From the NCBI GenBank assembly GCA_965230975.1, contig OZ246402.1, forward strand, positions 992,859-1,056,858: DNA of 64,000 nt, read 5' to 3'. The notes under the pieces were generated by a model. The model made no database searches. It had not been told where the DNA came from and saw only the letters and a program-made list of their open reading frames with translations. This document shows, piece after piece, positions 22,410-64,000 of this stretch. The position numbers were made by a program, and so were the translations under genes. This DNA is from an uncultured Candidatus Saccharibacteria bacterium (GTDB lineage Bacteria; Patescibacteriota; Dojkabacteria; J137). How positions within the stretch are numbered: position 1 is the first letter of the stretch; every line of letters begins with the position of its first letter.

Positions 22410-25232
22410 ATGTATAAAAAACGAACTTTAATAATAGCATTAGTCATAAGTCTATTTTTACCACTTATTACAACTACATTAAAAGCAGATGTAATTGCAG
22501 ATCCAAATGACCTTTTTTATGTCTCAACACCTACACCTAATCAAAGAGTTAAAGGAACTGTTCCAATTTCTTGGAGAATGTTCGATAACCAGCAACGGGT
22601 AATACAATATAGTATAAAGCTTTATGATAGAGCTACTTGTAAAAATAATTATTATGGTGACATTGCAACAAGTCAAAGTGGTGCATCTAATGCAAATACA
22701 AATAGCCAAATAAATTGGAACACAAAAGTTACCAGTACAACTTCAAATTTAGCAGATGGATTTTACTGTTTGCAAGTTTGCGCAGCTTATTTAAATGGAT
22801 CAACACCATATTCTGCATGTAATAGCAGAGAAGTAATTGTAACTAACGACAACGTTGCACCAGTAATTACAACTCAGCCACCAGCAGACAACATATTATT
22901 AGAAACTGATTCATGGCAATATCAAGTAGGAGCTACAGATATAAATGGGCATGCATTAACTTATAGATTGGTTTACACAACTCCATTTTTAACAATAAAC
23001 CCTCAAACCGGTTTAATTCAAACAACAAATGCATCTAAAACCTTGCCAAATGGCATTTACAGAGCAGAGTACAAGTTAGCTGTAGAGGTTAAAGATATTT
23101 ATGGAGATATTGCAATTCAACAATTTACATTAATTATTGAAAAACCATTACCAGTTACACCAACCCAACCTACCACACCTACACAACCAACAACACCTAC
23201 TACACCAACAGAACCAACGACTCCAACCGAACCTACAACGCCTACAGAGCCAACAACACCTACTACGCCGGTAAATACAAACGAACCTTCCACCATTGAA
23301 ATTACATCTCCTGAAAGAGACACCGAGTTTAAAGGAGGTAATAATTCAATTTCATGGACATCTAATGATGCAGAGGGAATTAAAAAAATAATTATAGAGT
23401 ACTCTAAAGATGGTGCGACATGGAGAACTATAAAAGAGATTACTGATTCTAAAGATTTTGAAGAAGGTGAGTATTTGTGGGACGTTTCTGGAATAGCAGA
23501 TGAAAGCTATTACATAAAGGTTACCGTAATTGACAACAAAGATGTGTCTACATCTAAAGTGTCCGAACTATTTGTAATTAAAAATGATGAAACACCAATA
23601 CAAGACAGTAATCCATTAATTGTAAATATTAGACCCGACAATAATTCTCAGGTAATCACAATTAGACCCGTAATTTATGGAGAGTTTGTGCCTTCTCAAG
23701 GTGCCAAAATAAATACTGAATCTATTCAAATTAAATTAGATGATAAAGATATTTTAGAATTGTGTACTATTACAGAAGAAAAATTCTCATGTGCATTAAC
23801 CCAAGATTTAGAATTAGGATTACACAAAATTAGTGTATCTGCCAAAGATACAAATTTAAAAGAGGTTTCTCAAGAATGGACATTTGAAGTAACAAATACA
23901 TCTACCAATCCAGTTTCTGGTGCGCAAGATATTATAATAATTCTAGGAAGGGAAATACCAAGAAACACATTAATATTGCTTGTGGTTATGTGTTTAGTGT
24001 GTCTAGTATTACTATTAATCCCTTGGGTTTTATATATTGTATGGTCAAAAAGAAGAGAAGAGGAATCTGAAGAAACCACAACTACTACTAAAAGCGTAGA
24101 TGATATTCCGTTAGGTAATTTAGATTATTCTAAAGATGTACAATCCAAACCAACAGAAAGCACATTCTCACAACCAACAATTGAAAATAACTACTACAAT
24201 GTTCCAGATACTTTAAAGTCAGAAGCAAATCTAGCAGATACAACTACCGATCCGTATTCTCAAAATATACAAATACCCGAGCAAACTCAAAAACCAGAAT
24301 TAAACATTGCAAGTTTTGAAGACTTTATTAAGCAGTATCCTGAGTTAGCAAGTGCAAGCTCATCCGAGCCTAGTGTATCTGAAGTAGAAAAGATTGAAGT
24401 GGATAATGAGTTTAGTAGTAAACCTGAAGAAACTACAGATTCAACAGCTGAAACGTTAACTGACACTAGTAACGCTACTCAAGCAAACACCAATGATGGT
24501 TTACTGCAAGAAGAACAGAGTAGTGGGTTAGAAGAGATCACACCAACCGAAACTGCGCAAAGCTCTACAGATACTTCAACAATAGAATCAACTGAAGATA
24601 AAGATTCAAGTATAGAGCCTGAAAACAATCCGGAAGTGGACATACCAGCAAATGTTCCAGTTGAAACTAAGTCTGAAACTGAACTAGAACAATCAAATGC
24701 TCAAAGTGAAAATGAATCAAACCAAACAGACAGTTTGACTTACACCGAACCGGAGGCACTAGATACTAGTATGTTTGCAGAGCCAGTACCTACAGATATT
24801 ACTACTGAACCAACAACACAAGAAAGTACTATAGGCGAAATTCCACCGACAAACTCAGTTGTTGAAAATCAAGTATCTATTGAGTCAGATCAAAGCCAAA
24901 ACCCCTACAATGTGGTGTCTCAAATTAAGCAAGGTGCAACTGATAATCAATTAAGCGAAAACTTTTTAAACTCTTTAAATAAGAATTCAGAAAACCAAGT
25001 ATTATCTGATACACAAACGGAAAACCGCGGTTCAACAATCAATGAATTAGTTCCTAACGATACTCAGGCTAACAATCAAGTTCAAGACAACTCTAACGCA
25101 AGTATATTTGGAACAGATACAAATGTAGCAGAATCAAGTAATAACCCTTCTGCACCTATTCTACCTCCAAATTTTAAACCAATAAACCCAAATGGATCAG
25201 ACGATACAACTACTGATTCTACAAATAATTAA
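22410..25232 (+). CDS. large surface protein: signal peptide, Ig-like and cadherin-like domains, Pro/Thr-rich linker, single TM, ~400-aa acidic Ser/Thr/Glu-rich C-terminal tail
   Basis: Cadherin-like/He_PIG-type segment (DSWQYQVGATDINGHALTYRLVYTTPFLTINPQTGLI). PTEPTTPTEP repeats. A TM helix (LILLVVMCLVCLVLLLIPWVLYIVW) is followed by KRREEESEE and a long low-complexity tail. Confidence 0.6.
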   Translation: MYKKRTLIIALVISLFLPLITTTLKADVIADPNDLFYVSTPTPNQRVKGTVPISWRMFDNQQRVIQYSIKLYDRATCKNNYYGDIATSQSGASNANTNSQINWNTKVTSTTSNLADGFYCLQVCAAYLNGSTPYSACNSREVIVTNDNVAPVITTQPPADNILLETDSWQYQVGATDINGHALTYRLVYTTPFLTINPQTGLIQTTNASKTLPNGIYRAEYKLAVEVKDIYGDIAIQQFTLIIEKPLPVTPTQPTTPTQPTTPTTPTEPTTPTEPTTPTEPTTPTTPVNTNEPSTIEITSPERDTEFKGGNNSISWTSNDAEGIKKIIIEYSKDGATWRTIKEITDSKDFEEGEYLWDVSGIADESYYIKVTVIDNKDVSTSKVSELFVIKNDETPIQDSNPLIVNIRPDNNSQVITIRPVIYGEFVPSQGAKINTESIQIKLDDKDILELCTITEEKFSCALTQDLELGLHKISVSAKDTNLKEVSQEWTFEVTNTSTNPVSGAQDIIIILGREIPRNTLILLVVMCLVCLVLLLIPWVLYIVWSKRREEESEETTTTTKSVDDIPLGNLDYSKDVQSKPTESTFSQPTIENNYYNVPDTLKSEANLADTTTDPYSQNIQIPEQTQKPELNIASFEDFIKQYPELASASSSEPSVSEVEKIEVDNEFSSKPEETTDSTAETLTDTSNATQANTNDGLLQEEQSSGLEEITPTETAQSSTDTSTIESTEDKDSSIEPENNPEVDIPANVPVETKSETELEQSNAQSENESNQTDSLTYTEPEALDTSMFAEPVPTDITTEPTTQESTIGEIPPTNSVVENQVSIESDQSQNPYNVVSQIKQGATDNQLSENFLNSLNKNSENQVLSDTQTENRGSTINELVPNDTQANNQVQDNSNASIFGTDTNVAESSNNPSAPILPPNFKPINPNGSDDTTTDSTNN
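23150..23270 (+). repeat. imperfect tandem 15-nt repeats encoding a (PTEPT/PTTPT)n linker
   Basis: Tandem repeats of the form ccaacagaaccaacgactccaaccgaacctacaacgcctacagagccaacaacacctact. Confidence 0.6.
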
Positions 25233-27876: not shown

Positions 27877-30531
27877 TTATCTTTCAGGTACTTTAATTCG
27901 TATAGTTACAGAATTGGTAAACAAGCTACCTACCTTAAACCCAACTGATGAAGTCTTAATATTATTTCCACCTGTAGAAAGCCAAGAGGTATCACTATCA
28001 TATGGCAAACCATTTCTATCTAACTTCTGTCCAAAAAGTTGATGTAGAATATCAAAGTCTCCTTCAAGCTCCAGGTTAAACCCTATAGATATATTAGTAC
28101 CTCCCTTTATACTATTCTCAGTAATTTTATCTGCCAAAAGCCTAATTGTATTTTCGGAAATTCTCTTATCGATTAATGGAGAACCAGAAACAGCATTAAC
28201 AACAAATCCTTCTGGGGTGCCTGTAGGGTTCTCGTTTACTTTAAGTATAAATACATTCTCGCTTTTCTTTATCTCATTAGTTGAATTTGCAACAACTGGA
28301 TTAGGGTATGGTTCTAATAATCTTGGTGATGACTGATCAGTTTCACCAGGTTTAGATGTATCACCATTGAACATATTCACCTGAAGTGGCCAATAAAATT
28401 TGTAGCCATTTTCAGCATCAATACTTAATGAACCAATAGGTATTGAGTATTTGATTATAGGTAGAGGGCCAATTAAACCCTTTCTTACAATTGAATACTC
28501 TCCACTTGACGGATCTTGCTGTATCTCCCCATAAAATTTATCAATTATAGCTCTTATTAATGTTGGTTGAAGATAGATAATATTGTCTACACTACCACCA
28601 CTTTGCTTAAACACTGCTTTAATTGAAGGCTGATCTGGAACTCCTCCTGTCCTACCACTAGTAATATTACCTAACGTTTTATATGCTCCTGCTGCAAGAT
28701 TACCTAATGCTACACCTGCCGCACTATCATTTTGTGCAGCTCGTTGGGCATAACCTTCTGCCTGACTAACTCGTTTGCCTAAAGTTCTACTCCAACCACT
28801 CCTAAATGATCTCGCTTCTGCAGGGTCCCTACCTCGCATCCTATCTACTACATCCAAGCCTTTAAAAAGAGTTCTACCTGTAAAACCTGCCGGGGAAGTT
28901 ACAACACGTCCTGCAGTAGTAGCAGTTTTTGCAAATGCTGCAGGTACTGTGTACCTCATACCTATAGCACTATCCTTCAAAGCATCTATTGGAGCTTTAA
29001 TAAATCCAAGATTTGCTTCTTTAACACCTAATGATTTATCAATATTATCTAAAATTGATGGGATAGAGAAAAATACACCAACACCCATTACCCCAAACAT
29101 AAAACTGGTTAAAGATTCAGAACCACTAACAGGCAAAGATTCAAAAATAGACTTCAAGCCTAAAATTGGCGGAATAAAAATACCTCTAGAAAAAGCAGGT
29201 AACTGATCTGCAAACACATTACTTGTAAACACCAAAGTAATTAAAAACAAAGCATAAGTAACAATAAAATGTAGCGAAGCAGACCCCATAGATTTTGCAA
29301 AATTTGTAATAGCATTCATACCATTACCTGGAACCGCAACACTAGCGAAAATAAATGGAGATGCAATTGGAGTTAAAATTAAAGTTAAATACTTTTTTAA
29401 TAACCTCCAAGCAATACGCCCACTAACCCAAATCATTAAAATCAATAAAATAGCATTAATAATTTCTCCAAACCAATAAGCAGGAGTTTTATTTGAACCA
29501 GTCAAAAGGTCAAGAAACTGCTTAATCAAATATGTCAAAAAAAAGCTATTTACACCTTGACCTGCTATTTCGGTATTTGCAACACCTTCAACTTCATCTG
29601 TAACATCTATAATCGAATTAAAGTTGTACCACTCCAAACGACTATCATCTATATATAAACCTCTATCGCATGGGTCATCTGTAGTACCACTACCTGTAGT
29701 ATCTCCTGTAGCGTTGGTTACAACTAAATTATTATTACAAGTATTGTCATCTCTACCTTCATAAACTCCCCTAGCAGGGGCACCCGGAGCAAAAAAGAAA
29801 GCGTGCACAGTATTTGCGCCAATTCCTATTAAATCTATAAAAACTCCGGAAATAGCATAACTTAAAGGAACTAAAATCATAGCCATAGCAATACTCGGAA
29901 TAGCATTTTGAATAGTAACCATCTCTTTACCACCAATCTTTTGCCTAAACACAATAGCAAAAGCAATGCCAATAATGATTAATATTAAAAATGCATAAAC
30001 AACATTTACAGACCAACCCCAAAAAGCTTGAATAGGTTCTAACAATTGATACCCTGTACCACCTGCAAAATATGGAGCTGGTTCTGCAGCATTGACTTTA
30101 CCGGTTAAAGCATAAACTTTATCTTGTACATAATCTAATGTACTTGCTGGCCTTTGGTTTAAAATAAAATTATTAACCGAACCTAAAGTATCTAAAACAT
30201 TCACATCTCCTTTTAGTTTATCTACATTAACAATACCTGCCTTTTCTGCCTGTTGAACAGCACACAATCTGTTGGTTAAATTGCTACCACCAATTGGAAC
30301 TTGAGCTGCGCCAATTAATGAGAATATAAAACCAGAACCCATATCTGCATTACAACCATCTGTTCTTAAAACAGAGGCTTGTTCTGCGGGAACTATTTGA
30401 AAAAGGGAGTTGTCAAAAGATGTACCAAAAGTAGAAGAATCTGCTAAAACTTTAATAGGTAGCAAAGAAAAGGCCAAAAAGCCTATAACACCTAATACCT
30501 TCAATCTTTTGAATTTGCTAGACAAAGACAT
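27877..30531 (-). CDS. polytopic membrane protein (signal peptide plus at least 8 TM) with ~380-aa C-terminal soluble domain; VirB6/TrbL/TcpH-like architecture (tentative)
   Basis: 884 aa. An N-terminal signal-like segment and about 100 aa of ectodomain precede several hydrophobic helices over aa ~170-500, then a large hydrophilic C-terminal domain. I could not identify a family-specific motif. Confidence 0.35.
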   Translation of the reverse strand: MSLSSKFKRLKVLGVIGFLAFSLLPIKVLADSSTFGTSFDNSLFQIVPAEQASVLRTDGCNADMGSGFIFSLIGAAQVPIGGSNLTNRLCAVQQAEKAGIVNVDKLKGDVNVLDTLGSVNNFILNQRPASTLDYVQDKVYALTGKVNAAEPAPYFAGGTGYQLLEPIQAFWGWSVNVVYAFLILIIIGIAFAIVFRQKIGGKEMVTIQNAIPSIAMAMILVPLSYAISGVFIDLIGIGANTVHAFFFAPGAPARGVYEGRDDNTCNNNLVVTNATGDTTGSGTTDDPCDRGLYIDDSRLEWYNFNSIIDVTDEVEGVANTEIAGQGVNSFFLTYLIKQFLDLLTGSNKTPAYWFGEIINAILLILMIWVSGRIAWRLLKKYLTLILTPIASPFIFASVAVPGNGMNAITNFAKSMGSASLHFIVTYALFLITLVFTSNVFADQLPAFSRGIFIPPILGLKSIFESLPVSGSESLTSFMFGVMGVGVFFSIPSILDNIDKSLGVKEANLGFIKAPIDALKDSAIGMRYTVPAAFAKTATTAGRVVTSPAGFTGRTLFKGLDVVDRMRGRDPAEARSFRSGWSRTLGKRVSQAEGYAQRAAQNDSAAGVALGNLAAGAYKTLGNITSGRTGGVPDQPSIKAVFKQSGGSVDNIIYLQPTLIRAIIDKFYGEIQQDPSSGEYSIVRKGLIGPLPIIKYSIPIGSLSIDAENGYKFYWPLQVNMFNGDTSKPGETDQSSPRLLEPYPNPVVANSTNEIKKSENVFILKVNENPTGTPEGFVVNAVSGSPLIDKRISENTIRLLADKITENSIKGGTNISIGFNLELEGDFDILHQLFGQKLDRNGLPYDSDTSWLSTGGNNIKTSSVGFKVGSLFTNSVTIRIKVPER

Positions 30532-52766: not shown

Positions 52767-52840
52767 TGAGCGCTGAGGGATTCGAACCCCCGACCCTTTC
52801 GGTGTAAACGAAATGCTCTAGCCAGCTGAGCTAAGCGCTC
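52767..52840 (-). tRNA. tRNA-Val (anticodon UAC); no encoded CCA
   Basis: The reverse complement GAGCGCT-TA-GCTC-AGCTGGCTA-GAGC-A-TTTCG-TTTACAC-CGAAA-GGGTC-GGGGG-TTCGAAT-CCCTC-AGCGCTC-A folds as a canonical cloverleaf with a 7-bp acceptor stem, U8, G18G19, T-loop TTCGAAT, and anticodon TAC. Confidence 0.85.
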
Positions 52841-53035
52841 CCTTAAATATAACTTAATTTTATCATATAAATTTTGCATAAGCCATAGTTAACAACTAAT
52901 TATTTTTATTATTATTTGTTATGCAGTAATGATTTTTAAAATAATTAAGATTGACACTTACAACCGAATCATCTAAATTAGAGTATGCATTTTCGTATCG
53001 AAAATTTTTAGTATATCTATATCCAAACTTGCAAC

Positions 53036-54010
53036 ATGGCAAAAACATTAAGTCATAACAAACCAGGGTTCTTTAAAAAGTTAAAGAACCCATTAATAAT
53101 TATAATAATCCTATTATTAGCAACAAATTTACTAACTTTTTTATACTATAAACCTCTAGTAGAAAATCCATTTGAAAATTATAAAAACCCTTACCCATAC
53201 ATAGATTTATCTAGAAGTTTTATAGATCAAGAAAACTTTATTGTTAACTTACAACCTTTAAGGGAATCTTTAGCATCAATTTATAAAGAACATGGAGAAG
53301 ATAAAATTGCACTATATGTTGAATTTCTAAATAGTGGTGCAAATATCTCTTACAATCAAGATGCAAGATATTACCCGGCCAGTTTAATTAAAATGCCTGT
53401 TGCAATCGCAGCGGTAAAAAGAATACAAGATGGATACTGGAATTGGGATAGTAAACTTGTAATTTTTGATGAAGATGTAGATACAAAATTTGGGACAATT
53501 GGCAATTTACCAATTGGAACAAGGTTAACAATTGAAGAGCTTTTAAAAGAGCTATTAACAAAATCAGATAATACTGCATATAAAATGCTATTACGGAATC
53601 TTGGCGCAGGGCCGGTAAATGATTTTCTAACAGAAACTGGTCTAGTAGAATTTTTCGACCAAGATTTAAACATTACTGCAAAAGAATATACAAGGCTTTT
53701 TAGATCTTTATACACTTCAAGCTACTTAAAAAGAGAGTACTCACAAAAGATTCTTAATTTATTAAGCTTAAGTGAAAGAAACTATTTAGGGCAAGCAATA
53801 CCAGCAGATATTATTTATTCGCACAAATTTGGTGAAAATGTTACTGAAAAAATATTTGCCGACTCGGGCATAGTCTACATTCCAGAAAGGCCTTACATTA
53901 TTACTGTATTGTACAAAGGCGGCAGTGAAGATGACAAAATGACCACAGATGCCTTTTTTTATAAAATAAGTAATACTGTTTATAAATTCTTTAACGAATA
54001 CAATAAGTGA
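53036..54010 (+). CDS. membrane-anchored class A beta-lactamase-like / PBP-fold serine hydrolase
   Basis: SxxK (ASLIK) and SDN (KSDNTAYKML) motifs, plus an N-terminal TM helix. The stop overlaps the GTG start of the giant gene (GTGA). Confidence 0.55.
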   Translation: MAKTLSHNKPGFFKKLKNPLIIIIILLLATNLLTFLYYKPLVENPFENYKNPYPYIDLSRSFIDQENFIVNLQPLRESLASIYKEHGEDKIALYVEFLNSGANISYNQDARYYPASLIKMPVAIAAVKRIQDGYWNWDSKLVIFDEDVDTKFGTIGNLPIGTRLTIEELLKELLTKSDNTAYKMLLRNLGAGPVNDFLTETGLVEFFDQDLNITAKEYTRLFRSLYTSSYLKREYSQKILNLLSLSERNYLGQAIPADIIYSHKFGENVTEKIFADSGIVYIPERPYIITVLYKGGSEDDKMTTDAFFYKISNTVYKFFNEYNK

Positions 54011-57000
54011 TTATAAAACGAAAAATTTTAAAAAAAATCATTACTATTGTTATTGTAACAATCCTTAGTCTAATGGCTATCTTTCCGGCAGATATATTAT
54101 TGCAACAAGTTAAACTAGCATTAATAGATAGTGATATTGTTGATACACTATATTGGGCAAATAAAGATACTGGGATAATTGACTCTTTGCTAGATGGCGA
54201 TTTAGTACAAAAGGTAAATGCAGCGGACCCACCTCCAAATGGGTTTTATATAAAAACAGGTGTTTTTTTAGGAAATGCGGCTCCAAAGACAATAAGTGGG
54301 CTTGGTTTCTCTCCAGATTTAGTTATTTTAAAGCCAGATACTACTGCAGGAGCGGGGGCCATATTTAAAACAAAAGCGATGTCTATTCTCAATGTGTCTT
54401 ACTTTGTTGCTACAGCCCAAACAAGTGCTGGAGCAATACAACTTGAAGAAGATGGTTTTACAGCTAGCACGACTACTAGCAACAACGCAAACATACCCAC
54501 TACCTGGACAGCATTTGGAGGTTCTAACTGCACATCAACAGGAGTTTTTTGTACAGGCACTTATATTGGTAGTGGGACTGCAACAAAATCAATTTCAACG
54601 GGGTTCCAACCAGATTTAGTATGGGTAAAAAGATCTACTGCGGTATCGGGTACATTTAGAACATCCTCAATGGGTACAAATGTGGGGCAGTACTTTACCG
54701 CAACCGCTCAAGATACAACAGGGGTTTTATTTACTACTCTTGATTCTGGAGGGTTTACTGTAGGCTCAACAAATAATACATCAACCGGAATTTTTTATTA
54801 TGTTGCTTTCAAAAATGTATCTGGGGCAATAAATGTAGGTAGCTATACTGGAAATGCTACCGATAATAGAAATATAACTGGGGTTGGGTTCACGCCAGAC
54901 CTTGTAATAACTAAAAACTCGGCTACAACAGTTGCACCTGTATTTAATGTAAAAGGTTCAAATGGTGATCACACAAGTCATTTTACCGATACTGCTAAAT
55001 TTGTTAATGGCATTCAAGCACTCCAAAGTGATGGATTTCAAATTGGGACAGATGCCACAGTAAATTCTAACTCAGTCGTATATTACTATGCAGCTTTTGG
55101 AGGGGCTGCTGGGCCATCCTCGGGTAGCGGAACTTTTAAAATGGCAACCGGTTCCTATACCGGAAACGGAGGCGTGCAAGTAATTCAAGGATTAGATTTT
55201 GAGCCAAACCTAGTTATTATTAAGGCCAATTCGGCTCAAACAGGAGTGTTTAGAACATCTGACATGAGTGGTGACCTTACAGCCGTACTAGATGGTGCCG
55301 CCTCGAATATTGCCAATGGTATAATCTCTTTAAATCCAGATGGGTTTACAGTAGGTTCAACTTCCAGAACAAATGCTGCCTCAACAACTTATTACTGGGA
55401 AGCTTTTGGCAATGCCTGGAGGCAAGACACAAATAGTGGAGCTTCTGATTTTTTTATTGGAACATATTATGGTAATGGGCTAGATAATAGAACAATAACA
55501 TTCTTACCGTTTCAAGCAGACCTTCTTGTAATAAAAGGCAACACAACTACAGCAGGTGTATTTAGAACCTCCGATATGAGCGGCGATTTAACCGGCTTCT
55601 TTGCTGCAACTGCAGAAACCACTAACAATATACAAGCAATTAGTTCTAACTCTTTTGAAGTTGGAAGTGGAACAAGTGTAAATTCCAATAATGTCATAAC
55701 TTATTACTTTGGCTTTAAAAATGGGTCAAATTTCAAAGTAGGAACCTATAGTGGTAATGGGACTAGCCAAACAATTTCTGCTGTTGGATTTCAGCCTGAT
55801 TACATATGGGTAAAACAAACTGGAGCAACAAGAGGAATAATGAGAAGTAACTTGGGAGCAACTGACTCAGCTTTTCCTTTCATAAACGCTACTAGTTTTA
55901 CCGGGGGAATCACGGGGATTGTAAGCAATGGATTCACCGTAGGTTCAGCAACAGAAACAAATGCTTCTGGAACAAATAATTATAGGTATATTGCATGGAA
56001 AAATAATTACACTCCACAGTCCAAATCTTATCAAATGAAAACCGGCTATTACATAGGTAACGGAGCTTATAAGCAAATTTCAGGTCTAGGATTCTCACCT
56101 GATCTAGTTATAATAAAATCTGACTCATCTACTACAGGGGCTCTTTTTAAAACAAAATCAATGCCTAACGGATCGACCTCTTATTTTATGGCAACAGCCG
56201 ACTCAACAGCAGGATTAGTAACACTTAAATCAGATGGCTTTATGGTATCTTCGACGGCTACAAGTACTAATATAAGATACACATGGGTAGCTTATAGTGG
56301 TTCAGATTGTACTTCTACAGGCATTTTTTGCACAAATACCTATATTGGGAGTGGTTCTTCGCCAAGAGCTATAACAGTAGTCGGGTTTCAATCTGATTTA
56401 ATAGTCGTTAAGCAAAATAGTACAACTAATGCTGTTTGGAGGTCTTCTAGCATGCCAAACAATTATGTCCAATACCTTTCTGCTACGGTTCAAGATACTA
56501 CAGGTAGCTATATTTCAACTATAGATTCCACGGGATTTACGATTGGTTCAGGAATGAATTCAACCTCTGTTTACTACCACTTTTTCACATTCAAAAATGT
56601 AACCGGCAGTATAAATGTGGGGACATATACTGGAAATGGCACAGACAATCGAAACATCACAGGTGTAGGATTTAAACCAAACTTTGTATTTCTAAAAAAT
56701 GCAGAAACTACGTCAGAAGGCGTGATGAACCTAGATGAATCTTATGGAGACTATTCTAGCTATTTCATCGCAACTGCAAATGTTGCAAACTCAATACAAG
56801 CTTTAATTTCTGATGGATTTCAAATAGGTACCCATGCAACAGCAAATACAAATCTAAACGTTCATTATTATGCCGCTTTTGGAGATGCAGAGGCAAATTC
56901 TGCAGGTACTGGATCATTTACAATGGCTACTGGTAGTTACACCGGAAATAGTGAGTATAAAATATTTATGGGATTAAGCTTTACACCCGATTTAATAATT

Positions 57001-60000
57001 ATTAAAGGAAATACAACTCAGACTGGGGTTTTTAGAACAAGTAGTATGGGAGGAGATTCAACAGCGATCCTAGATGGAGCAACTGCAAATATTGCTAGTG
57101 CAATCATATCTATTAACAAAGACGGGTTTACGGTTGGAAATAGTGCTACGGTTAATTCTAACGGAGTAACCTATTACTGGACAGCTTATGGGAACGCCTG
57201 GAGACCCGAAACTAACAATGGAGCCACAGATTTTTATGTGGGAGCATATTATGCTAATGGTTCTGATAATACAGATATTACAAGGTTACCATTTCAGGCA
57301 GATTTACTTACTATTAAAAGAAATAGTACTACTGCGGGAGTATATAAGACCTCGGATATGTCTGGTGACTTAACTGGGTACTTTGCAGCTACCGCAGAAA
57401 CTACAAATAGCATACAAGCATTTAATACCGATGGATTTGAGATAGGAACAACCGCCAATGTAAATACAGCAACTAACACTTATTGGTACTTTGGATTTAA
57501 AAACGGAAACAATTTCAAAGTAGGCACATATAGTGGTACCGGCAGCGCACAAACTATATCTGCAATTGGATTCCAACCAGACCATGTTTGGGTAAAAGCA
57601 ACTGGAGCAACCAGAGGTATATTAAGAACAAAAGAGGGAGTCACTGACTCAGCATTACCATTTATTAATGTTGGTGCAATAACTGGGGGTATTACAGCAT
57701 TAGCAAGCAATGGAATAACTCTTGGAACCGCATCTGAAACAAACTCTTCAGGTACTAATAACTATAGGTACGTAGCATGGAAAACTCCTTCTGTTACTTT
57801 TTCAAGTAGTGGAACACAATCTACAAATCTAAACGTCAATTCAACCAACAACTATATTGGGGCTGCGTTTACAGCTGTTTCTACTTCAAGCTCAATAAAC
57901 ATAACCAGAATAATTTTATCAGAAACAGGAACTATCGCAGCAAATACAAACCTTGCAAATGTCAAGCTTTACTACGAAACAACTGGAACTTGCACGTATA
58001 ATGGTACAGAAACACAGTTTGGAACGACTCAAAGTTTTGGAGCATCTCAAACTGCCACATTTGATGGCACAATAACGGTTGGCACATCACAAATATGTAT
58101 ATATCCCGTGCTAGATGTAGGTAGTGGTGCATCTGCTGGAGAAACAATTGAACTTGAAATTACATCTTCATCAAATATAAATATATCTACAGGAATAATA
58201 AGCGGTACTTTCCCTGTTACACTAAGTGGAACCACCACATTGATTGCTACGTCTAATACTGCACCCAACAGCCCTGCAAGCTTGGCACAAAAGAAAGTAG
58301 ACGACTCGACAATATCTACAGGTGCTTGGATTAATCAAACATCGGTTAAATTTACTGCAAACGTTAGTGATACAGATAATCCAGATACACTTTACCTATG
58401 TGTAGAGGTATTACCAATAAGTAGCCCTTTTACGGGCACAGAAACAGCATGTGGTAGTAGCGTGTCTTATGTTGGAAGTGCATTAGCTGCAAGTGTAACA
58501 ATTGGAAGTCTTACAGATAATGAATATAAATGGCAGGCTAGAGTAAAAGATAGTTTAGGAGCATACTCCGCATGGGTGCATTTTTCAAGTCTTCCTTCAA
58601 GCTTGATTGGATACTGGAAAATGGACGAAACGAGCTGGACAACTGACTGTTCAACAGCATCTGTAATAGACTCAACTTCAAATGCAAATAACGGAAAGTC
58701 ATGTCCTGGTACAACGGGACCAACGACAACTGCTTCGGGTAAATATGATAGAGCGGGAGATTTTGATGGGAGTGAGGATTATGTTGATACGGGCAGTGGT
58801 GTTAACATTACTAACTTATCATTCACTATAAGTGGTTGGGTCAAAAGAGATGTTACTAATGTTTATGAAATGGTTGTTTCTCAAGGTACTTCAAGTACCA
58901 ATCAAGGTTTACATTTCGGATTTGTTCCAGGAAACGTAGTAAGATGTGGTTTTTTTGGAAATGATTTGGACTCAACTACTTTAATTACAGATACAACTGG
59001 CTGGCATCATATTGCTTGTGCTTATAATGCTTCAACTAATACTAGGTATATATATATTGATGGAGTTTTAGATATTACACAAAGTGGAGTTTCTGCAGAT
59101 TATTCTGGAACAGGTAATCTAATTATTGGGTCTTGGGGGTGGAATATTGGTACAAGTGAGAAATTTAATGGAAAAATAGATGAAGTCAAGATCTATAATG
59201 TAGCAAGAGATCTTTCAGGAATTATAGCGGATATGAACGGCTATTCAGGAACTGACTTCGGAATAGATACCACCGCGCCTACAGGAGGAACAGTTTACGA
59301 CGGCAGTTCAAATGGTGTAGATATTATGTTTAATGATGGGTCATTATCAACTCTATCTGCAAACTGGAGTGGGGTAAATGCAAGCAATGCAGGACTCTCA
59401 AGCTATGATTATTCAATTGGAACTAGTGCCGGTGGAACAGATGTAGTGAACTGGACCTCTAATGGTACTAGTACTAGCATAACCGTAAATAGTTTAAACC
59501 TACAAAGCTCTAAAATGTACTTTTTCAATGTACGAACAAACGACGCGGCTGGAAACTCTGCAACAATAAGTTCTAATGGACAAGTAGTAGCACCATCACT
59601 TACATTTACACTATCTTCAAACTCAATAAACTTTAGTAATTTAAATGCAGGCAATAGCTATTCAGATACTAAAACTACAACATTAACAACATCTACGAAT
59701 GCTTACAATGGCTATGTTATTCGATTATTTAAAACGGATTCCTTAAGATCTGCTACAAGTCCTTCTATAACTATTCCTGACTTTAATGGAGGCACTTATG
59801 CGGCACCAAGCGCATGGGGATCAAATACAGGATTTGGATACACGTCTAACGACACAACAATTCAAGGAGTTAACAAATTTAACCCAGTAACATGTGCAGG
59901 AGGAGGGTCATCTCCATGTTATGCACCAATATCCAGCAGCGCACCTGGTGATATTGTGGCAGATCACACATCTAATGTTACAGGTAGCCCTATTACAAAT

Positions 60001-60099
60001 GAGCAGTTTATAATCACTTATAAGGTTCAAACTCAATCTACTCAATCTGCCGGAACATATTCTACATCTTTGGTGTATACTATAATTCCGCAATATTAG
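54007..60099 (+). CDS. giant secreted surface protein (2030 aa): signal peptide, about 12 tandem ~95-aa beta-rich modules organised as two ~595-aa super-repeats, LamG/ConA-like lectin domain, C-terminal WxL-like domain
   Basis: Repeated module signature GF.PDL[VI].[IV]K...T......[FR][RK]T..M.....YF.ATA......I..L..DGF.VG......N....YY. The LamG block is YWKMDETSW...NGKS...ASGKYDRAGDFDGSEDYVDTG...NLSFTISGWVKRD...GWHHIACAYNASTNTRYIYIDGVL...GKIDEVKIYNVARDLSGI. The C-terminus is homologous to that of ORF 61160..62212. Confidence 0.8.
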   Translation: MIIKRKILKKIITIVIVTILSLMAIFPADILLQQVKLALIDSDIVDTLYWANKDTGIIDSLLDGDLVQKVNAADPPPNGFYIKTGVFLGNAAPKTISGLGFSPDLVILKPDTTAGAGAIFKTKAMSILNVSYFVATAQTSAGAIQLEEDGFTASTTTSNNANIPTTWTAFGGSNCTSTGVFCTGTYIGSGTATKSISTGFQPDLVWVKRSTAVSGTFRTSSMGTNVGQYFTATAQDTTGVLFTTLDSGGFTVGSTNNTSTGIFYYVAFKNVSGAINVGSYTGNATDNRNITGVGFTPDLVITKNSATTVAPVFNVKGSNGDHTSHFTDTAKFVNGIQALQSDGFQIGTDATVNSNSVVYYYAAFGGAAGPSSGSGTFKMATGSYTGNGGVQVIQGLDFEPNLVIIKANSAQTGVFRTSDMSGDLTAVLDGAASNIANGIISLNPDGFTVGSTSRTNAASTTYYWEAFGNAWRQDTNSGASDFFIGTYYGNGLDNRTITFLPFQADLLVIKGNTTTAGVFRTSDMSGDLTGFFAATAETTNNIQAISSNSFEVGSGTSVNSNNVITYYFGFKNGSNFKVGTYSGNGTSQTISAVGFQPDYIWVKQTGATRGIMRSNLGATDSAFPFINATSFTGGITGIVSNGFTVGSATETNASGTNNYRYIAWKNNYTPQSKSYQMKTGYYIGNGAYKQISGLGFSPDLVIIKSDSSTTGALFKTKSMPNGSTSYFMATADSTAGLVTLKSDGFMVSSTATSTNIRYTWVAYSGSDCTSTGIFCTNTYIGSGSSPRAITVVGFQSDLIVVKQNSTTNAVWRSSSMPNNYVQYLSATVQDTTGSYISTIDSTGFTIGSGMNSTSVYYHFFTFKNVTGSINVGTYTGNGTDNRNITGVGFKPNFVFLKNAETTSEGVMNLDESYGDYSSYFIATANVANSIQALISDGFQIGTHATANTNLNVHYYAAFGDAEANSAGTGSFTMATGSYTGNSEYKIFMGLSFTPDLIIIKGNTTQTGVFRTSSMGGDSTAILDGATANIASAIISINKDGFTVGNSATVNSNGVTYYWTAYGNAWRPETNNGATDFYVGAYYANGSDNTDITRLPFQADLLTIKRNSTTAGVYKTSDMSGDLTGYFAATAETTNSIQAFNTDGFEIGTTANVNTATNTYWYFGFKNGNNFKVGTYSGTGSAQTISAIGFQPDHVWVKATGATRGILRTKEGVTDSALPFINVGAITGGITALASNGITLGTASETNSSGTNNYRYVAWKTPSVTFSSSGTQSTNLNVNSTNNYIGAAFTAVSTSSSINITRIILSETGTIAANTNLANVKLYYETTGTCTYNGTETQFGTTQSFGASQTATFDGTITVGTSQICIYPVLDVGSGASAGETIELEITSSSNINISTGIISGTFPVTLSGTTTLIATSNTAPNSPASLAQKKVDDSTISTGAWINQTSVKFTANVSDTDNPDTLYLCVEVLPISSPFTGTETACGSSVSYVGSALAASVTIGSLTDNEYKWQARVKDSLGAYSAWVHFSSLPSSLIGYWKMDETSWTTDCSTASVIDSTSNANNGKSCPGTTGPTTTASGKYDRAGDFDGSEDYVDTGSGVNITNLSFTISGWVKRDVTNVYEMVVSQGTSSTNQGLHFGFVPGNVVRCGFFGNDLDSTTLITDTTGWHHIACAYNASTNTRYIYIDGVLDITQSGVSADYSGTGNLIIGSWGWNIGTSEKFNGKIDEVKIYNVARDLSGIIADMNGYSGTDFGIDTTAPTGGTVYDGSSNGVDIMFNDGSLSTLSANWSGVNASNAGLSSYDYSIGTSAGGTDVVNWTSNGTSTSITVNSLNLQSSKMYFFNVRTNDAAGNSATISSNGQVVAPSLTFTLSSNSINFSNLNAGNSYSDTKTTTLTTSTNAYNGYVIRLFKTDSLRSATSPSITIPDFNGGTYAAPSAWGSNTGFGYTSNDTTIQGVNKFNPVTCAGGGSSPCYAPISSSAPGDIVADHTSNVTGSPITNEQFIITYKVQTQSTQSAGTYSTSLVYTIIPQY
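54250..57820 (+). repeat. intragenic tandem duplication: two ~1785-nt copies (54250-56034 and 56035-57820), roughly 65-70% nt identity
   Basis: Protein segments KTGVFLGNAAPKTISGLGFSPDLVILK...YRYIAWKNNY and KTGYYIGNGAYKQISGLGFSPDLVIIK...YRYVAWKTPS are colinear module-by-module, including the DCTSTG[VI]FCT and NAWR[QP][DE]TN landmarks. Confidence 0.75.
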
Positions 60100-60100
60100 T

Positions 60101-61135
60101 ATGAAAAAACTCTTTATTATAGTTTTGGTGCTTTTCAATTTAACTACTGTCTATGTAAGTGCGCAAAGTGTTGCAGGTCAAAACACGGTTTCATCTATGG
60201 GAATAAACCCTTCAATCCTTGAGGTTGTTTTAGATAAAAATAATGCAACAACACAAGTAATTACATTAAGTAACTTAACTAATTTACCAATTCCTATAAA
60301 AGTTACAAAACAAAGTTTTACACCGAAAGAAAAGCTTTCAATTCCCGAAGATGAATTACACATTTATGATGCATCTTCGTGGATCACTATAGACAACACA
60401 GATACTGACTTTATTTTACAACCACAAGAAATCAAAAATATTGAAATAACCATTAATCAGCCAGAGAACGCATCTCCCGGAGGGCATTATGCAACAATTA
60501 TATTTGAGCCTTTAATCCCAGAGGGGTTAATCTCTCAAAATTCAGTATATATATATGCGAGAGTAGCTGCCCTTATGTTTATGCAAGTTAGAGGAGCGAT
60601 AATTGAAGATGTATCTTTGGAAGGCATTTCTACCAACTTAATAAATGAACCAGGATTAGTTAATTTTAATCTAAATTTAAAAAACAATGGAAACAGTCAC
60701 ATTAGGCCTAAGTCGCAGATTGTTATTAATAATGTACTAACTCATGAAGAGGTTTTAAAAGCAAACTTTCAAGAGGGGATAGTGTTGCCAGGTACTGTCA
60801 GAACATTCCAGTCGCAATTTGAATCCAATACCTTGTTTGGGATCTATTCATATAAAACAACAATCAACTATGGTGCAGATAACTTGGTACTAGAAACTCC
60901 AACTCAATATTTTTTTGTTTTCCCCTACAAGCTAGCGTTTCTTTTAATATTTATAATCCTATTTCTTATTTATATAAAAACTTTTAGACGAAGAATATCT
61001 AAGGCTGTTAAGGTTTTATTCAAAGGAGATAGAGCATCAAAAATGGAACATCAGAAATTTTATAAAAATTCACCATATTTCAGTCACAAAACCCTTGACA
61101 AGAGCTCGGAAAATCGACAAAATAGTAAATTATAA
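60101..61135 (+). CDS. DUF916/CscA-like cell-surface protein: signal peptide, beta-rich ectodomain, C-terminal TM anchor with basic tail
   Basis: 344 aa. GINPSILEVVLDKNNATTQVITLSNLTNLPIPIKV followed by PGGHYATIIFEP. The C-terminus has TM helix LAFLLIFIILFLIYI then KTFRRRISKA. Paralogous to 62276..63199. Confidence 0.45.
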   Translation: MKKLFIIVLVLFNLTTVYVSAQSVAGQNTVSSMGINPSILEVVLDKNNATTQVITLSNLTNLPIPIKVTKQSFTPKEKLSIPEDELHIYDASSWITIDNTDTDFILQPQEIKNIEITINQPENASPGGHYATIIFEPLIPEGLISQNSVYIYARVAALMFMQVRGAIIEDVSLEGISTNLINEPGLVNFNLNLKNNGNSHIRPKSQIVINNVLTHEEVLKANFQEGIVLPGTVRTFQSQFESNTLFGIYSYKTTINYGADNLVLETPTQYFFVFPYKLAFLLIFIILFLIYIKTFRRRISKAVKVLFKGDRASKMEHQKFYKNSPYFSHKTLDKSSENRQNSKL

Positions 61136-61159
61136 GTCGATATTTTTTATTTATATACA

Positions 61160-62212
61160 ATGTTAAAAAGATTTTGGGTTCTAGGTTTTGCAGTTGTAAT
61201 AATATTCTCTGCAATTATGCCAATGCAATTAAGTGCAGCATATTTAAGTACCGGTAGTGTTAGTTTATCAGATTCAAGAATTAGTCAATCTGCAAACTAT
61301 ACACTTACGTTTTCAAATGTAACCACTTCACCAATCAAATGTATTCAAGTTAAGTTTTCAGATGCTGCTACTGCAGGGTCTAAACCAACAGGAATGACTA
61401 TAACATCTGCAACATTTTCAGCAACATCCAACTATGTTCCAACACCAGCAAGTTGGTCTATCAATAACAACAACACTACAGGCGTTAGTCAAATAACATA
61501 TGCAACAGGCGAAACACCTGCAAGTGCATCTAGCAGAACAGTAGTTTTAAATACCATTACTAACGGCTCTACATCTTCTACTGGTTATTTCTTACAGTTT
61601 TCTACATATAACAATGTAGATTGCACAAGTAGTCCTGTAGACAGTGCTGTAATAATGTTTATATTTACAGATGGTCAAGTCGTAACAGCAACAGTTGATC
61701 CAACATTAACATTTACCATTGCAGGAGTTGCATCTGGACAATCAGTTAATGGAGCAACAACTAATATAACAACAACAAGCACAACAGTACCTTTTGGTAC
61801 AGTAACAGCAGCTACAAATAAAATTGCAGCTCACGACTTAGCAGTTGGGACAAATGCAGCTGGAGGTTATACAGTTACAGTTAGATACACCGGTACATTA
61901 GCTGCTGGTACTCCAACAATCTCAGATTTATCTGGTGCTACAAACGCATCTCCAATATCATTTACATCAGCTGGAACTGAAGCATTCGGATACACAACAA
62001 ATGATGCAACATTAGGTACAGGCACAGCAGCAAGGTTTACAACAGCTGGACCAAAATGGGCAGCATTTACAACATCACCTTTAGAGGTAGCTTACAGTGC
62101 AACACCAGTATCAGAAACTACTAGAGTAGGTTATCAAGTAGGTGTAGCTGCAACAACAGAAGCCGGTACTTATACAACAACTGTAGTTTATGTTGCAACT
62201 CCAACTTATTAA
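61160..62212 (+). CDS. secreted Thr-rich protein with C-terminal WxL-like domain (Tyr variant)
   Basis: Signal peptide. The C-terminal ~150 aa (PTLTFTIAG...GGYTVTVRY...GFGYTTNDAT...AGTYTTTVVYVATPTY) is homologous to the giant protein C-terminus (PSLTFTLSS...NGYVIRLF...GFGYTSNDTT...AGTYSTSLVYTIIPQY). Confidence 0.5.
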   Translation: MLKRFWVLGFAVVIIFSAIMPMQLSAAYLSTGSVSLSDSRISQSANYTLTFSNVTTSPIKCIQVKFSDAATAGSKPTGMTITSATFSATSNYVPTPASWSINNNNTTGVSQITYATGETPASASSRTVVLNTITNGSTSSTGYFLQFSTYNNVDCTSSPVDSAVIMFIFTDGQVVTATVDPTLTFTIAGVASGQSVNGATTNITTTSTTVPFGTVTAATNKIAAHDLAVGTNAAGGYTVTVRYTGTLAAGTPTISDLSGATNASPISFTSAGTEAFGYTTNDATLGTGTAARFTTAGPKWAAFTTSPLEVAYSATPVSETTRVGYQVGVAATTEAGTYTTTVVYVATPTY

Positions 62213-62275
62213 TGTTATAAATCGATATCTTTAACGGAGTGCCCATATTGGGCATTTCGTATAGTAAAAAATACT

Positions 62276-63199
62276 ATGCGAAAAATTAAAATAATTACAG
62301 TAATACTTGCATTCTCAGCTTTTGTTTTTGTACTTAGTCAAAAGGTAGATGCTCAAACACCATTATCTAGCTTTGCAATTTCGCCCCCTTCTTTTGACTT
62401 TACAGCAAATCCTGGAGACAGTATTAAAAACTCTATCCGAGTAGAAAATCTTTCTGATATTCCATTAAATATTACTGCCAAACCAGAAAACTTTGTTGCA
62501 TATGGAGATAGTGGACAGGTTTCTTTAACAGAAGAAGATACTAGTTATGCTATAGATAAATGGATTAACTTGCCGGTAAATATAATAACAATAAACCCTA
62601 AAGAGTCCGCAACTTTTGAATTTAATGTAGATATTCCAAAAAACACAGAACCTGGTAGCCATTATGGTGCAATAGTATTTTCTACTTTATCTGCACAAAC
62701 CGCAGAGAGCACTGGGGCCTTTGTACAACAAGAAATTGGAGCCCTTATTTTAATAAAAATTCCAGGAGATGTAATAGAAGAGGCAAACTTAATAAGCTTT
62801 GATTCTAAAGAAGATCTTTACACAGACACAAGCTTAACATTAACAGCTTTAATTGAAAATAGCGGAACACTTCATTTTAAACCTGTTGGTAGAATTTATA
62901 TAAAAGATATTTTTGGTAATTTAATACAAACAGTAGAAGTTCAAAGCAAGAATATTCTTCCAAAAAACAAACGTCAATTTGAAGAGAACTTTTCTTTTGA
63001 TAGTATAGGTTACTATAAGGCAGAGCTAGAACTTTTTTATAAAAATGGAGAAAAGGTAATTAAAGCAGATACTTACTTCACATCATTAAATCTTTCAAAG
63101 TCTATTCCAATACTATTAATTATTGGTGCTTTTGGTACAATGTACCTAATATTCAGAAAAAGAATAAACAAAGCATTAATGATCATTATTAAGGGTTAA
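62276..63199 (+). CDS. DUF916/CscA-like cell-surface protein, paralog 2
   Basis: 307 aa. FAISPPSFDFTANPGDSIKNSIRVENLSDIPLNITAKPENF followed by PGSHYGAIVFST. The C-terminus has TM helix IPILLIIGAFGTMYLIF then RKRINKA. Confidence 0.45.
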   Translation: MRKIKIITVILAFSAFVFVLSQKVDAQTPLSSFAISPPSFDFTANPGDSIKNSIRVENLSDIPLNITAKPENFVAYGDSGQVSLTEEDTSYAIDKWINLPVNIITINPKESATFEFNVDIPKNTEPGSHYGAIVFSTLSAQTAESTGAFVQQEIGALILIKIPGDVIEEANLISFDSKEDLYTDTSLTLTALIENSGTLHFKPVGRIYIKDIFGNLIQTVEVQSKNILPKNKRQFEENFSFDSIGYYKAELELFYKNGEKVIKADTYFTSLNLSKSIPILLIIGAFGTMYLIFRKRINKALMIIIKG

Positions 63200-64000
63200 T
63201 GAAATTCGTAAGATGTACGCTCACAATTTTAGTTATCTTTTTTATATCTGTATTTTTAACTTCTAAAGTTAATTCTCAATCAGTAACTTTTAGCGTAGGG
63301 GTAGAAGATTCTTCAATTGAATTCTTGGGTTATACCTCTCCAAATGGTTTTATAACTTTTAAAGAAGGGGGCTCTGTAATCGGAACAACTACAGCAGATT
63401 CAGTAGGCTATTACTATAAAAACTTTACGGCAGTACTAGTCGGAATACACACTATAGAGATATACTCTACAGATGTAAATGGAGTAAATACACCCCAATT
63501 TTCGTATGAAATAGTTGTTCTACCTACTCAAATTACATCAATCAGCTTTGATTTTCCTCCAACTTTACAGTTAAATAAAAATACATATACTAATGAAGAT
63601 GTATTAGTTAAGGGATTAGCCAAACCCAACTCAAACATTTCAATTAAACTTGATGGAAGTGGAATTCAAGAATTTAATACCATTTCAAACAACTCTGGTG
63701 AAATAAGTTTTATAATATTAAAGCAATTTTTGCCAACTGGGGATTTTATTGTTAATGCGTATTTAACTGATTCGATTGATCAAAGTTATAGTAACACATT
63801 AAATTTTCAATATAACCCAGGATTTGTACCTATTATCAACAATATACCAGAGGGGCCTATTAAGGATATAAGCGAACAAATATCTGGCTTGCTTCAAGAG
63901 TATTTTTGGGCACCATTAGGCTCTTTGTTAAATAATGGGGGTAGAGTACAGGGTGAAGTAATAGAAACAACTACGCTAGATAATTATTTGCAAAATACAT
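63199..64000 (+). CDS. secreted Ig-like/beta-sandwich surface protein (5' partial; runs off the window end)
   Basis: Its ATG overlaps the upstream stop (TAATG). The first 267 codons are open to the window edge. Signal peptide MKFVRCTLTILVIFFISVFLTSKVNSQ. Beta-rich repeats. Confidence 0.5.
   Translation, partial: MKFVRCTLTILVIFFISVFLTSKVNSQSVTFSVGVEDSSIEFLGYTSPNGFITFKEGGSVIGTTTADSVGYYYKNFTAVLVGIHTIEIYSTDVNGVNTPQFSYEIVVLPTQITSISFDFPPTLQLNKNTYTNEDVLVKGLAKPNSNISIKLDGSGIQEFNTISNNSGEISFIILKQFLPTGDFIVNAYLTDSIDQSYSNTLNFQYNPGFVPIINNIPEGPIKDISEQISGLLQEYFWAPLGSLLNNGGRVQGEVIETTTLDNYLQNT

Follow-up and report, generated by a model that had tools for sequence, protein, structure and literature searches.

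The 64,000-nucleotide (nt) stretch analysed here (below: the window; positions 992,859 to 1,056,858 of contig OZ246402.1, assembly GCA_965230975.1) encodes two surface proteins, one of 2030 and one of 350 amino acids (aa), that end in the same C-terminal domain. We conclude, with a probability of roughly 0.8, that the shared domain is the pilin C-terminal domain of the Pam system and that the region encoding it is a Pam-type pilus operon of a bacterium of the candidate phyla radiation (CPR, Patescibacteria). The same joint estimate covers the fold: as judged from structure models, the domain appears to have an incomplete Ig-like fold resembling that of chaperone-usher pilins, with a groove open to a strand of the next subunit. 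What the domain is can therefore be regarded as known, the Pam system having been published in 2026, and the operon in the window is a divergent member with a giant adhesin among its subunits. The system is most likely a Sec-exported, usher-less pilus assembled with the help of chaperones by donor strands.

An initial annotation, made from the sequence alone, had proposed that the C-termini of the two proteins are homologous, and this was confirmed. Residues 1799-2030 of the giant protein and the 350-aa protein share 62 identities in 201 positions (31%; E 2e-6; BLASTP with composition adjustment), and the alignment reaches the last residue of both; the homologous stretch makes up the last ~170 aa of either protein. 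The motif blocks listed in that annotation are all present and in register. In the order giant/350-aa protein they read PSLTFTL/PTLTFTI, NAYNGYVIRL/NAAGGYTVTV and GFGYTSNDTT/AFGYTTNDAT, followed by a C-terminal strand that runs up to the stop codon (AGTYSTSLVYTIIPQY/AGTYTTTVVYVATPTY). The domain of the giant protein (residues ~1871-2030) is encoded at 59617-60096 on the + strand, as delimited by the NCBIfam model NF058581 and a family hidden Markov model (HMM); by motif, its block 1 (NAYNGYVIRL) lies at 59698-59727 and its C-terminal strand at 60049-60096, both +. A scan with the family HMM found the domain in only these two open reading frames (ORFs) of the window, residues 1861-2030 of the giant protein matching at E 1e-23.

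The family is large. Among 1.84 billion cluster representatives, the domain profile matched at least 2,415 at E<=1e-3 and 1,246 at E<=1e-10. Almost all of the 150 matches listed have the domain at the C-terminus or a few residues from it, and most of them end in Y or F; among the matches listed, the proteins range from 137 to 6399 aa and their N-terminal parts are highly varied, while some small proteins consist of the C-terminal domain alone. A family-wide C-terminal motif, [PA]G.Y.[TN].[VIL].[YLFMI]...[PAS].[YF]-COOH, could be derived. Among the relatives G236 is invariant and N232, P265, G277, Y278, G336 and Y338 are nearly so. The domain is not covered by any Pfam family. In NCBIfam release 20, residues 206-350 of the 350-aa protein matched NF058581 (CPR_Pam_pilin_C) with 36.7 bits (E 3.9e-9, profile positions 2-148 of 148) and the domain of the giant protein with 25.4 bits (E 1.2e-5, positions 3-148 of 148), and the model was matched by 82 of 95 diverse relatives. 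The curated cut-off of NF058581 is 55 bits; scores that are significant yet below this threshold indicate homology, as a divergent branch. The alternative offered in the initial annotation, a novel surface-attachment module, has to be abandoned since the domain is already described, as the Pam pilin C-terminal domain of NF058581 (2026 preprint).

The Pam pilus was reported for Candidatus Mycosynbacter amalyticus (Saccharimonadia, CPR) in a preprint (bioRxiv 10.64898/2026.03.03.709456), and NF058578, NF058579 and NF058581 are the corresponding NCBIfam models. According to that preprint, cryo-electron microscopy (cryo-EM) of the filaments revealed the pilins PamA and PamB. In each of them a beta-sandwich at the N-terminus is joined by a single linker strand to a C-terminal domain with a truncated Ig-like fold, which takes up the linker of the adjacent subunit. 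The 350-aa protein of the window (61160-62212, +; assigned by NF058581 and by its model) has the same architecture and is referred to below as the pilin. A signal peptide is followed by an N-terminal beta-sandwich (nt 61238-61663), a linker strand PTLTFTIAG (61700-61726, +), identified as the putative donor strand by its position between the two beta domains, and the C-terminal domain (nt 61775-62209). In the AlphaFold2 (AF2) model of the full pilin (mean predicted local distance difference test score, pLDDT, 90.8), strands at residues 32-168 and 221-348 flank a single strand at 183-189. More than 1,160 homologues of the pilin were found, under the names WWE3, Dojkabacteria or Patescibacteria group, and these names show the source to be a CPR bacterium.

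The C-terminal domain modelled alone had a pLDDT of 84.9 and a predicted template modelling score of 0.82. Its top matches in the PDB were mostly chaperone-usher pilins, namely CfaB (2e-3), CsuA/B, the PapG pilin domain, FimG, FimF, FimA, SafA and PapA, together with the TasA fibre. Fold prediction, one of the checks suggested in the initial annotation, thus pointed to the chaperone-usher pilin class, with weak scores (best E 2e-3). The full-length pilin model gave only generic two-domain Ig-like matches in the PDB, such as integrins and cohesins. Sequence searches of the PDB with the pilin, chaperone 2 (see below), a small WxL protein and a DUF916 protein of Paenibacillus and a small WxL protein of Enterococcus returned no match, and no solved chain of WxL or PamA/B exists for comparison.

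The genes around the pilin fit the same assignment. The giant protein (54007-60099, +; Pfam DUF7483, Laminin_G_3 and the C-terminal Pam-type domain) is followed by chaperone 1 (60101-61135, +, 344 aa), the pilin, chaperone 2 (62276-63199, +, 307 aa) and a PamR-like anchor (63199-64000, +), whose gene runs past the end of the window. This order, large protein, chaperone, pilin, chaperone, PamR-like protein, is kept in five related loci, where the large proteins, of 1019 to >3000 aa, occupy the same position and all carry the domain at their C-terminus. No usher-like gene was found in the window operon or in the five loci. The two chaperones are paralogues (E 9e-26). In both, a signal peptide precedes two beta domains, and a membrane helix with a basic tail forms the C-terminus; as far as the accessible part of the preprint describes PamC and PamD (Sec export, C-terminal membrane helix), the architecture is the same.

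The full PamR-like protein, of 295 aa, could be read from L123, in which the same locus is assembled further. The protein has a predicted signal peptide, directly followed by a strand SVTFSVGV, and then two Ig-like domains and a C-terminal membrane helix. It was assigned through the protein at the equivalent operon position of the related locus L129, with which it shares 30% identity (E 2e-21); the L129 homologue matches NCBIfam NF058578 (CPR_pilus_PamR) at 1.8e-19, under the equivalog cut-off of 300. Its N-terminal strand is kept in five loci. Two relatives end differently: the PamR-like protein of L126 (12101-14628; WWE3 metagenome-assembled genome GCA_013335095.1) has a dockerin-like module and no membrane helix (Dockerin_1 1.5e-4), and that of L130 (12000-12938), judged by eye, has a dockerin-like end in place of the helix. 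In L126 the gene after that of the PamR-like protein encodes a cohesin-domain protein (5.4e-7). These sequences suggest that in such relatives the base of the pilus may be held by a cohesin-dockerin pair.

A short strand of the form [LIV][ST]F[ST][VIL] is common to the pilin linker (PTLTFTIAG), the linker of the giant protein (PSLTFTLSS) and the mature N-terminus of the PamR-like protein (SVTFSVGV). Such a distribution of one strand motif over three places is to be expected if the subunits form a chain in which strands are donated and accepted. In the mechanism envisaged, all five products, each of which bears a signal peptide, would be exported by Sec. The two membrane-tethered chaperones would insert a strand into the open domain and so hold the nascent subunits. 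The pilin would polymerise into the shaft, the linker PTLTFTIAG of one subunit filling the C-terminal domain of the preceding subunit. The 2030-aa protein would enter the chain through its own C-terminal domain, most likely at the distal tip, and would display ~1,850 aa of DUF7483, laminin-G and Ig modules as a host-binding adhesin. The PamR-like protein would cap the base, where SVTFSVGV would plug the last pilin and the C-terminal helix would fasten the filament to the membrane. The role of the shared domain is likely to be the acceptance of a strand from a neighbouring subunit in the filament rather than the binding of peptidoglycan.

The giant protein consists, in this order, of an N-terminal signal/anchor, DUF7483 repeats (Pfam, 3.9e-67 in 9 stretches), a Laminin_G_3 domain (nt 58765-59211, 1e-21), an Ig-like domain (nt 59386-59586), a linker strand and the C-terminal domain. 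A block of DUF7483 repeats of ~590 aa is duplicated in tandem (nt 54244-57783, residues 80-1259; 59.8% identity over 587 aa), and this sequence similarity suggests that the putative adhesin may have expanded recently. The linker strand PSLTFTLSS (residues 1863-1871, 59593-59619, +) resembles a donor strand and aligns with the pilin linker; it is kept as [LI][ST]F[ST][LV]S in five large homologues. The protein is most likely an adhesin at the tip of the pilus, and it would be the part that binds the host.

The operon resembles the Pam system in its NF058581-type pilin domain, its two Sec-exported chaperones with a C-terminal membrane helix, its PamR-like anchor with an N-terminal strand, the lack of an usher and the CPR host. 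It differs in that its proteins score under the curated cut-offs and its lineage is WWE3/Dojkabacteria-like, not Saccharimonadia, and in having one pilin gene, in contrast to PamA, PamB and PamE, and no PamT-like cap. No ATP synthase genes were found near the operon within the scanned parts of the window, which is a further difference from Pam. In the window the domain is fused to a 2030-aa multi-domain protein, a fusion that the accessible part of the preprint does not describe, and the chaperones are detectably WxLIP (DUF916) proteins, a relationship that the preprint does not mention.

Several observations weigh against a Pam-type donor-strand pilus. The Pam system itself rests on a single preprint. 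Both window copies of the domain lie under the cut-off of NF058581, the chaperones matched none of the Pam-named NCBIfam models, and no PamT-like single-domain cap is encoded in the window. The Foldseek matches of the C-terminal-domain model are weak (best E 2e-3, template modelling scores of 0.4-0.5). The analysis shows the homology of the domains, their family, their fold class, the make-up and conservation of the operon, the common strand motif and the relationship of the chaperones to WxLIP. Strand exchange itself, the sequence in which subunits follow one another, a giant protein at the tip and its binding to a host are what we infer, and the shared strand motif backs the first of these indirectly. 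In the giant protein, furthermore, the linker directly abuts the next strand (PSLTFTLSS, then NSINFSNL), whereas in the pilin a loop of ~18 residues separates the two; the linker of the giant protein may therefore fold back in cis instead of being donated, which makes the place of this protein in the filament uncertain.

The explanation that competes best is that the domain is a divergent WxL domain, which would anchor monomers non-covalently to peptidoglycan, stabilised by WxLIP-like proteins, without forming a filament. WxL/Csc clusters (PMC9772566, PMC10599100, PMC1534035; Pfam PF13731, PF06030 or WxLIP_PGBD, and PF11797 or WxLIP_HBD) are defined by a small and a large WxL protein together with a WxLIP (DUF916-DUF3324-TM; PMC10599100). 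The window has the same layout, the giant protein and the 350-aa protein being accompanied by two WxLIP homologues. By sequence comparison, the homologous relationship of the window chaperones to Firmicutes WxLIP (DUF916-DUF3324) extends over both domains and is, in our judgement, firm. Chaperone 2 matches Pfam WxLIP_PGBD (DUF916, PF06030) with 35.3 bits, above the gathering cut-off of 27.3, while chaperone 1 by itself had no Pfam match. In tblastn searches chaperone 2 found annotated DUF916 proteins of Paenibacillus (2e-5) and Streptomyces (6e-5), and an HMM of Lactobacillales WxLIP built here recognised it at E 1.1e-10. When a profile of 11 CPR chaperones was compared with one of 52 Lactobacillales WxLIP by hhalign, the probability was 99.3% (E 3.7e-20, 290 columns); with signal peptides and membrane helices trimmed it was 98.0% (E 3e-13, 234 columns across both domains), and controls gave P 0.1-0.2.

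The domain itself was the subject of a specific proposal in the initial annotation: its two blocks were thought to correspond to the two conserved blocks of WxL domains with Tyr in place of Trp, so that it could be a Y-x-[VI] subclass of WxL. Membership in WxL was not borne out. Pfam WxL (PF13731) was matched neither by the two C-terminal domains (E<=10) nor by the whole proteins (E<=1), and WxL is absent from the families listed for the 95 diverse relatives; the gathering score of this model is 25 bits, and a small WxL protein of Paenibacillus, the positive control, scored 30.1. The window copies contain no Trp-x-Leu motif at these sites, having Y-V-I and Y-T-V in block 1 and Y-T-I and Y-V-A in block 2. 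Tyr is thus present in both copies at both blocks, as proposed, but it is not invariant in the family: in 126 sequences the position in block 1 is occupied by Y (84), F (40) or W (2) and that in block 2 by Y (101), L (14), F (5), M (3), I (2) or H (1). The two sites are conserved buried aromatic or hydrophobic strand positions, not a Tyr signature.

What stands of the proposed likeness is the arrangement of the blocks, which are collinear with the two Trp blocks of WxL (W1 and W2) at a spacing of ~107 residues; the similarity of the profiles is weak. The median spacing is 107 residues in the domain family, 100 in canonical small WxL proteins and 107 in those of Paenibacillus (published values: ~106 for small and ~68 for large WxL proteins; PMC9772566), and the extreme C-terminal position is shared as well. 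Profile-profile comparison, also suggested in the initial annotation, was run with hhalign. A profile of 150 Pam-domain sequences matched WxL at P 0.0018-0.005 (probability 7-15%), better than reversed decoys (P 0.16-0.5) and far less well than WxL profiles match each other (P 1e-9 to 1e-23); in global mode nothing was found. In relaxed alignments TNAxxG[YF]xV fell on RGxxxGWxL and the C-terminal strand on AG.Y...LTW.L. The WxL reference set comprised ~75 canonical proteins collected by a DNA pattern scan and a Paenibacillus WxL subfamily; searches with the Paenibacillus WxL protein and with its alignment hardly widened the diversity of this set. As the scan demanded AG.Y...[LIV]TW.L...P, the set is biased in the C-terminal strand, and for this reason paralogues that do not fit the pattern were also scored and the C-terminal block was also removed. 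After its removal the local alignment still scored best at block 1, as expected (P 0.067), or at the N-terminal strand (P 0.034). WxL ORFs, with off-pattern paralogues scored as well, accounted for 21 of the 30 top scores of the Pam-domain HMM (area under the curve 0.67-0.74), and none of them was individually significant (best E 0.06).

Variation at the Trp sites is also found in WxL-family domains next to DUF916 genes. In Paenibacillus a DUF916 gene adjoins the genes of a small WxL protein and of a 1048-aa RCC1-repeat protein that ends in a WxL domain, the small, large and WxLIP layout of the window, and WxL proteins of Paenibacillus that pass the Pfam threshold carry Y, T or F in place of the second Trp. 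On a plasmid of Streptomyces goshikiensis (NZ_CP108058.1; L002, 4900-6831) a RICIN-domain protein is encoded directly 5' of a DUF916 gene. It ends in GDYAGTLTLTLL, with Leu at the second Trp, and the only WxL model that it matched was an HMM of our own (1.4e-12); the product name in the record gives the RICIN domain only. This gene pair indicates that WxL-like clusters without the signature Trp exist in Actinobacteria.

The cluster layout with firm WxLIP homology, the collinear and equally spaced blocks, the tolerance of Y, T, F or L at the second Trp and the enrichment of WxL ORFs among the top HMM scores thus speak for a wall-anchoring WxL domain. We nevertheless consider it unlikely. Neither the two copies nor the 95 relatives were assigned to Pfam WxL, and the profile-profile signal is weak (P ~0.002). 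The small protein has the two-domain-plus-linker build of PamA and PamB and matches the Pam pilin model, a PamR-like protein with a matching N-terminal strand is encoded 3', the fold class is that of chaperone-usher pilins, and cryo-EM shows the related PamA and PamB as filaments. Like the WxL/Csc clusters, the window operon pairs a small with a large, multi-domain protein and adds a membrane-anchored protein of two Ig domains; the common domain is always C-terminal in both systems. In the window operon, however, the small protein has an additional N-terminal beta-sandwich and the anchor is a membrane protein instead of an LPxTG protein. WxL has been described as a peptidoglycan-binding domain, which sets it apart from the Pam pilin.

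Two further explanations were rejected on the evidence that follows. A C-terminal sorting or secretion tag, comparable to type IX C-terminal domains or CTERM and perhaps removed, with no structural role in the mature protein, would account for the strictly C-terminal position of the domain in proteins of such different length with very diverse N-termini. This is highly improbable: 150-180 aa is large for a tag, the domain also stands alone in small proteins or makes up one half of a 350-aa pilin that is itself conserved, neither a sorting enzyme nor a secretion machine was found in the conserved operon, and the domain matches one that has been resolved within assembled filaments. The idea that composition alone makes the C-termini of these Thr/Ser/Gly-rich and beta-rich surface proteins look alike can practically be dismissed, because, although T, S and G are abundant in both proteins and the HMMER bias filter loses the giant protein unless it is turned off, the composition-adjusted BLASTP value is 2e-6, both copies independently match one curated profile over its full length, conservation is position-specific in thousands of relatives and reversed-profile decoys reach only P 0.16-0.5.

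If the region is read as a Pam-type pilus operon, chaperone-usher pili (Fim, Pap, CFA/I, Csu) provide an analogue and not a group to which it belongs. Common to both are the pilin fold, an incomplete Ig-like one of the class to which the best PDB matches belong, the logic of donor strands, the two-Ig-domain chaperones and the attachment of a large adhesin through a C-terminal pilin domain (compare FimH, PapG and CfaE). In contrast to chaperone-usher pili, the window system has neither an usher nor an outer membrane, its chaperones are membrane-tethered, its donor strand lies between two domains instead of at the N-terminus, and no sequence relationship is detectable.

A closer connection may exist with WxL. 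The literature on WxL includes an AF2 prediction in which a WxLIP strand is set into a gap of the WxL domain, parallel to a WxL strand, and mentions a loosely tethered N-terminal strand in WxL domains; the former placement fits the chaperone-pilin mode proposed for Pam. Most of 37 small WxL proteins of Lactobacillales (loci L009-L115), inspected by eye, have, close to the start of the mature protein, a short beta strand with an alternating pattern (for example THATFTAPT, GKVAFTAPT or NAYVTIEK), followed by a spacer rich in Pro, Asp and Gly. A few small LPxTG proteins (L036, L062, L077 and L085) start with a similar strand (VATFTVIGD, AGISFEN), an anecdotal observation also made by eye. To the eye, these N-terminal strands of small WxL and LPxTG proteins look like donor strands. 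We tentatively propose, at somewhat less than even odds, that the Pam pili of CPR bacteria belong to the same ancient family as the WxL/Csc clusters known from Firmicutes and Actinobacteria, a family of surface fibres that need no usher and are assembled on a chaperone tethered to the membrane, by strand complementation. In that case the WxL domain would be homologous to the Pam pilin C-terminal domain, and Trp versus Tyr, Phe or Leu would be ordinary variation at a buried strand site. The window operon is the bridging case: its chaperone scores above the WxLIP threshold of Pfam, and its pilin is matched by the Pam model. According to the accessible part of the Pam preprint, the pilins have no homologues outside CPR, and WxL and DUF916 are not mentioned there. 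In the searchable literature WxL is linked to donor-strand systems only in reviews that mention both, and to Pam nowhere, so that the bridge between Pam pili and WxL clusters is apparently new.

The operon is part of a densely packed run of + strand genes (53036-64000), in which neighbours overlap or nearly abut. The gene preceding that of the giant protein encodes a class A beta-lactamase-like protein or serine hydrolase (53036-54010, +; Pfam Beta-lactamase2 at 1e-38). Its stop codon shares 4 nt (GTGA) with the GTG start of the giant gene, an overlap by which the two genes are translationally coupled, and it is possibly the first member of the operon. A beta-lactamase-like gene adjoins the large-protein gene in the related loci L127 and L130 as well, on the opposite strand in L130. 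The hydrolase may remodel the wall to let the pilus pass.

Directly 3' of the pilin stop codon lies a pair of adjacent RNA hairpins (62236-62279, +), identified by folding energy in comparison with shuffled sequences (minimum free energy -22.4 kcal/mol, z -5.07; 0 of 200 shuffles fold equally well), the second of which spans the ATG of chaperone 2. The pair is possibly an attenuator or a translational control of the ratio of pilin to chaperone, which would keep the pilin in excess. In the gap 5' of the operon there is a tRNA-Val gene (anticodon TAC, 52767-52840, - strand), and a sigma-70-like site (TTGACA, 17 nt, TAAATT; 52951-52979) precedes the first gene; in a scan for promoters and terminators such sites, including those of the sigma-70-like type, were no commoner than in shuffled sequence. 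In two loci the PamR-like gene is followed 3' by a gene whose product is a membrane protein in which a CHASE sensor domain (1e-29) but no output domain was recognised (L123, 12908-13948; L127, 12973-13920), at a position just past the end of the window. The window has a G+C content of ~32% and contains ordinary chromosomal genes (class II ribonucleotide reductase, AlaRS, UvrC, ATP-dependent DNA ligase). Three of its large ORFs had no Pfam match at E<=1e-5: 22410-25232 (+, 940 aa), 27877-30531 (-, 883 aa) and 18126-19550 (-, 473 aa).

The operon extends Pam-type pili to lineages and sequences that are missed by the NCBIfam cut-offs. Its giant protein, which is modular, fast-evolving and attached through a pilin domain, is a candidate for the host-contact protein, a point left open by the Pam preprint, and its design recurs in proteins of 1,000 to 6,400 aa. 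For WxL proteins, whose attachment, together with the role of DUF916, has been a standing question since 2006-2007, the firm homology between CPR chaperones and WxLIP raises the testable idea of strand complementation or polymerisation as opposed to plain wall binding, and the genetically tractable Enterococcus, Listeria and Lactobacillus bear on it. If the two systems do form one family, WxL proteins would do more than stick to peptidoglycan: the small WxL proteins would donate their conserved N-terminal strand, after which the Pro-rich spacer follows, the large ones would be tip adhesins, WxLIP would be the chaperone and the small LPxTG protein would be the wall anchor.

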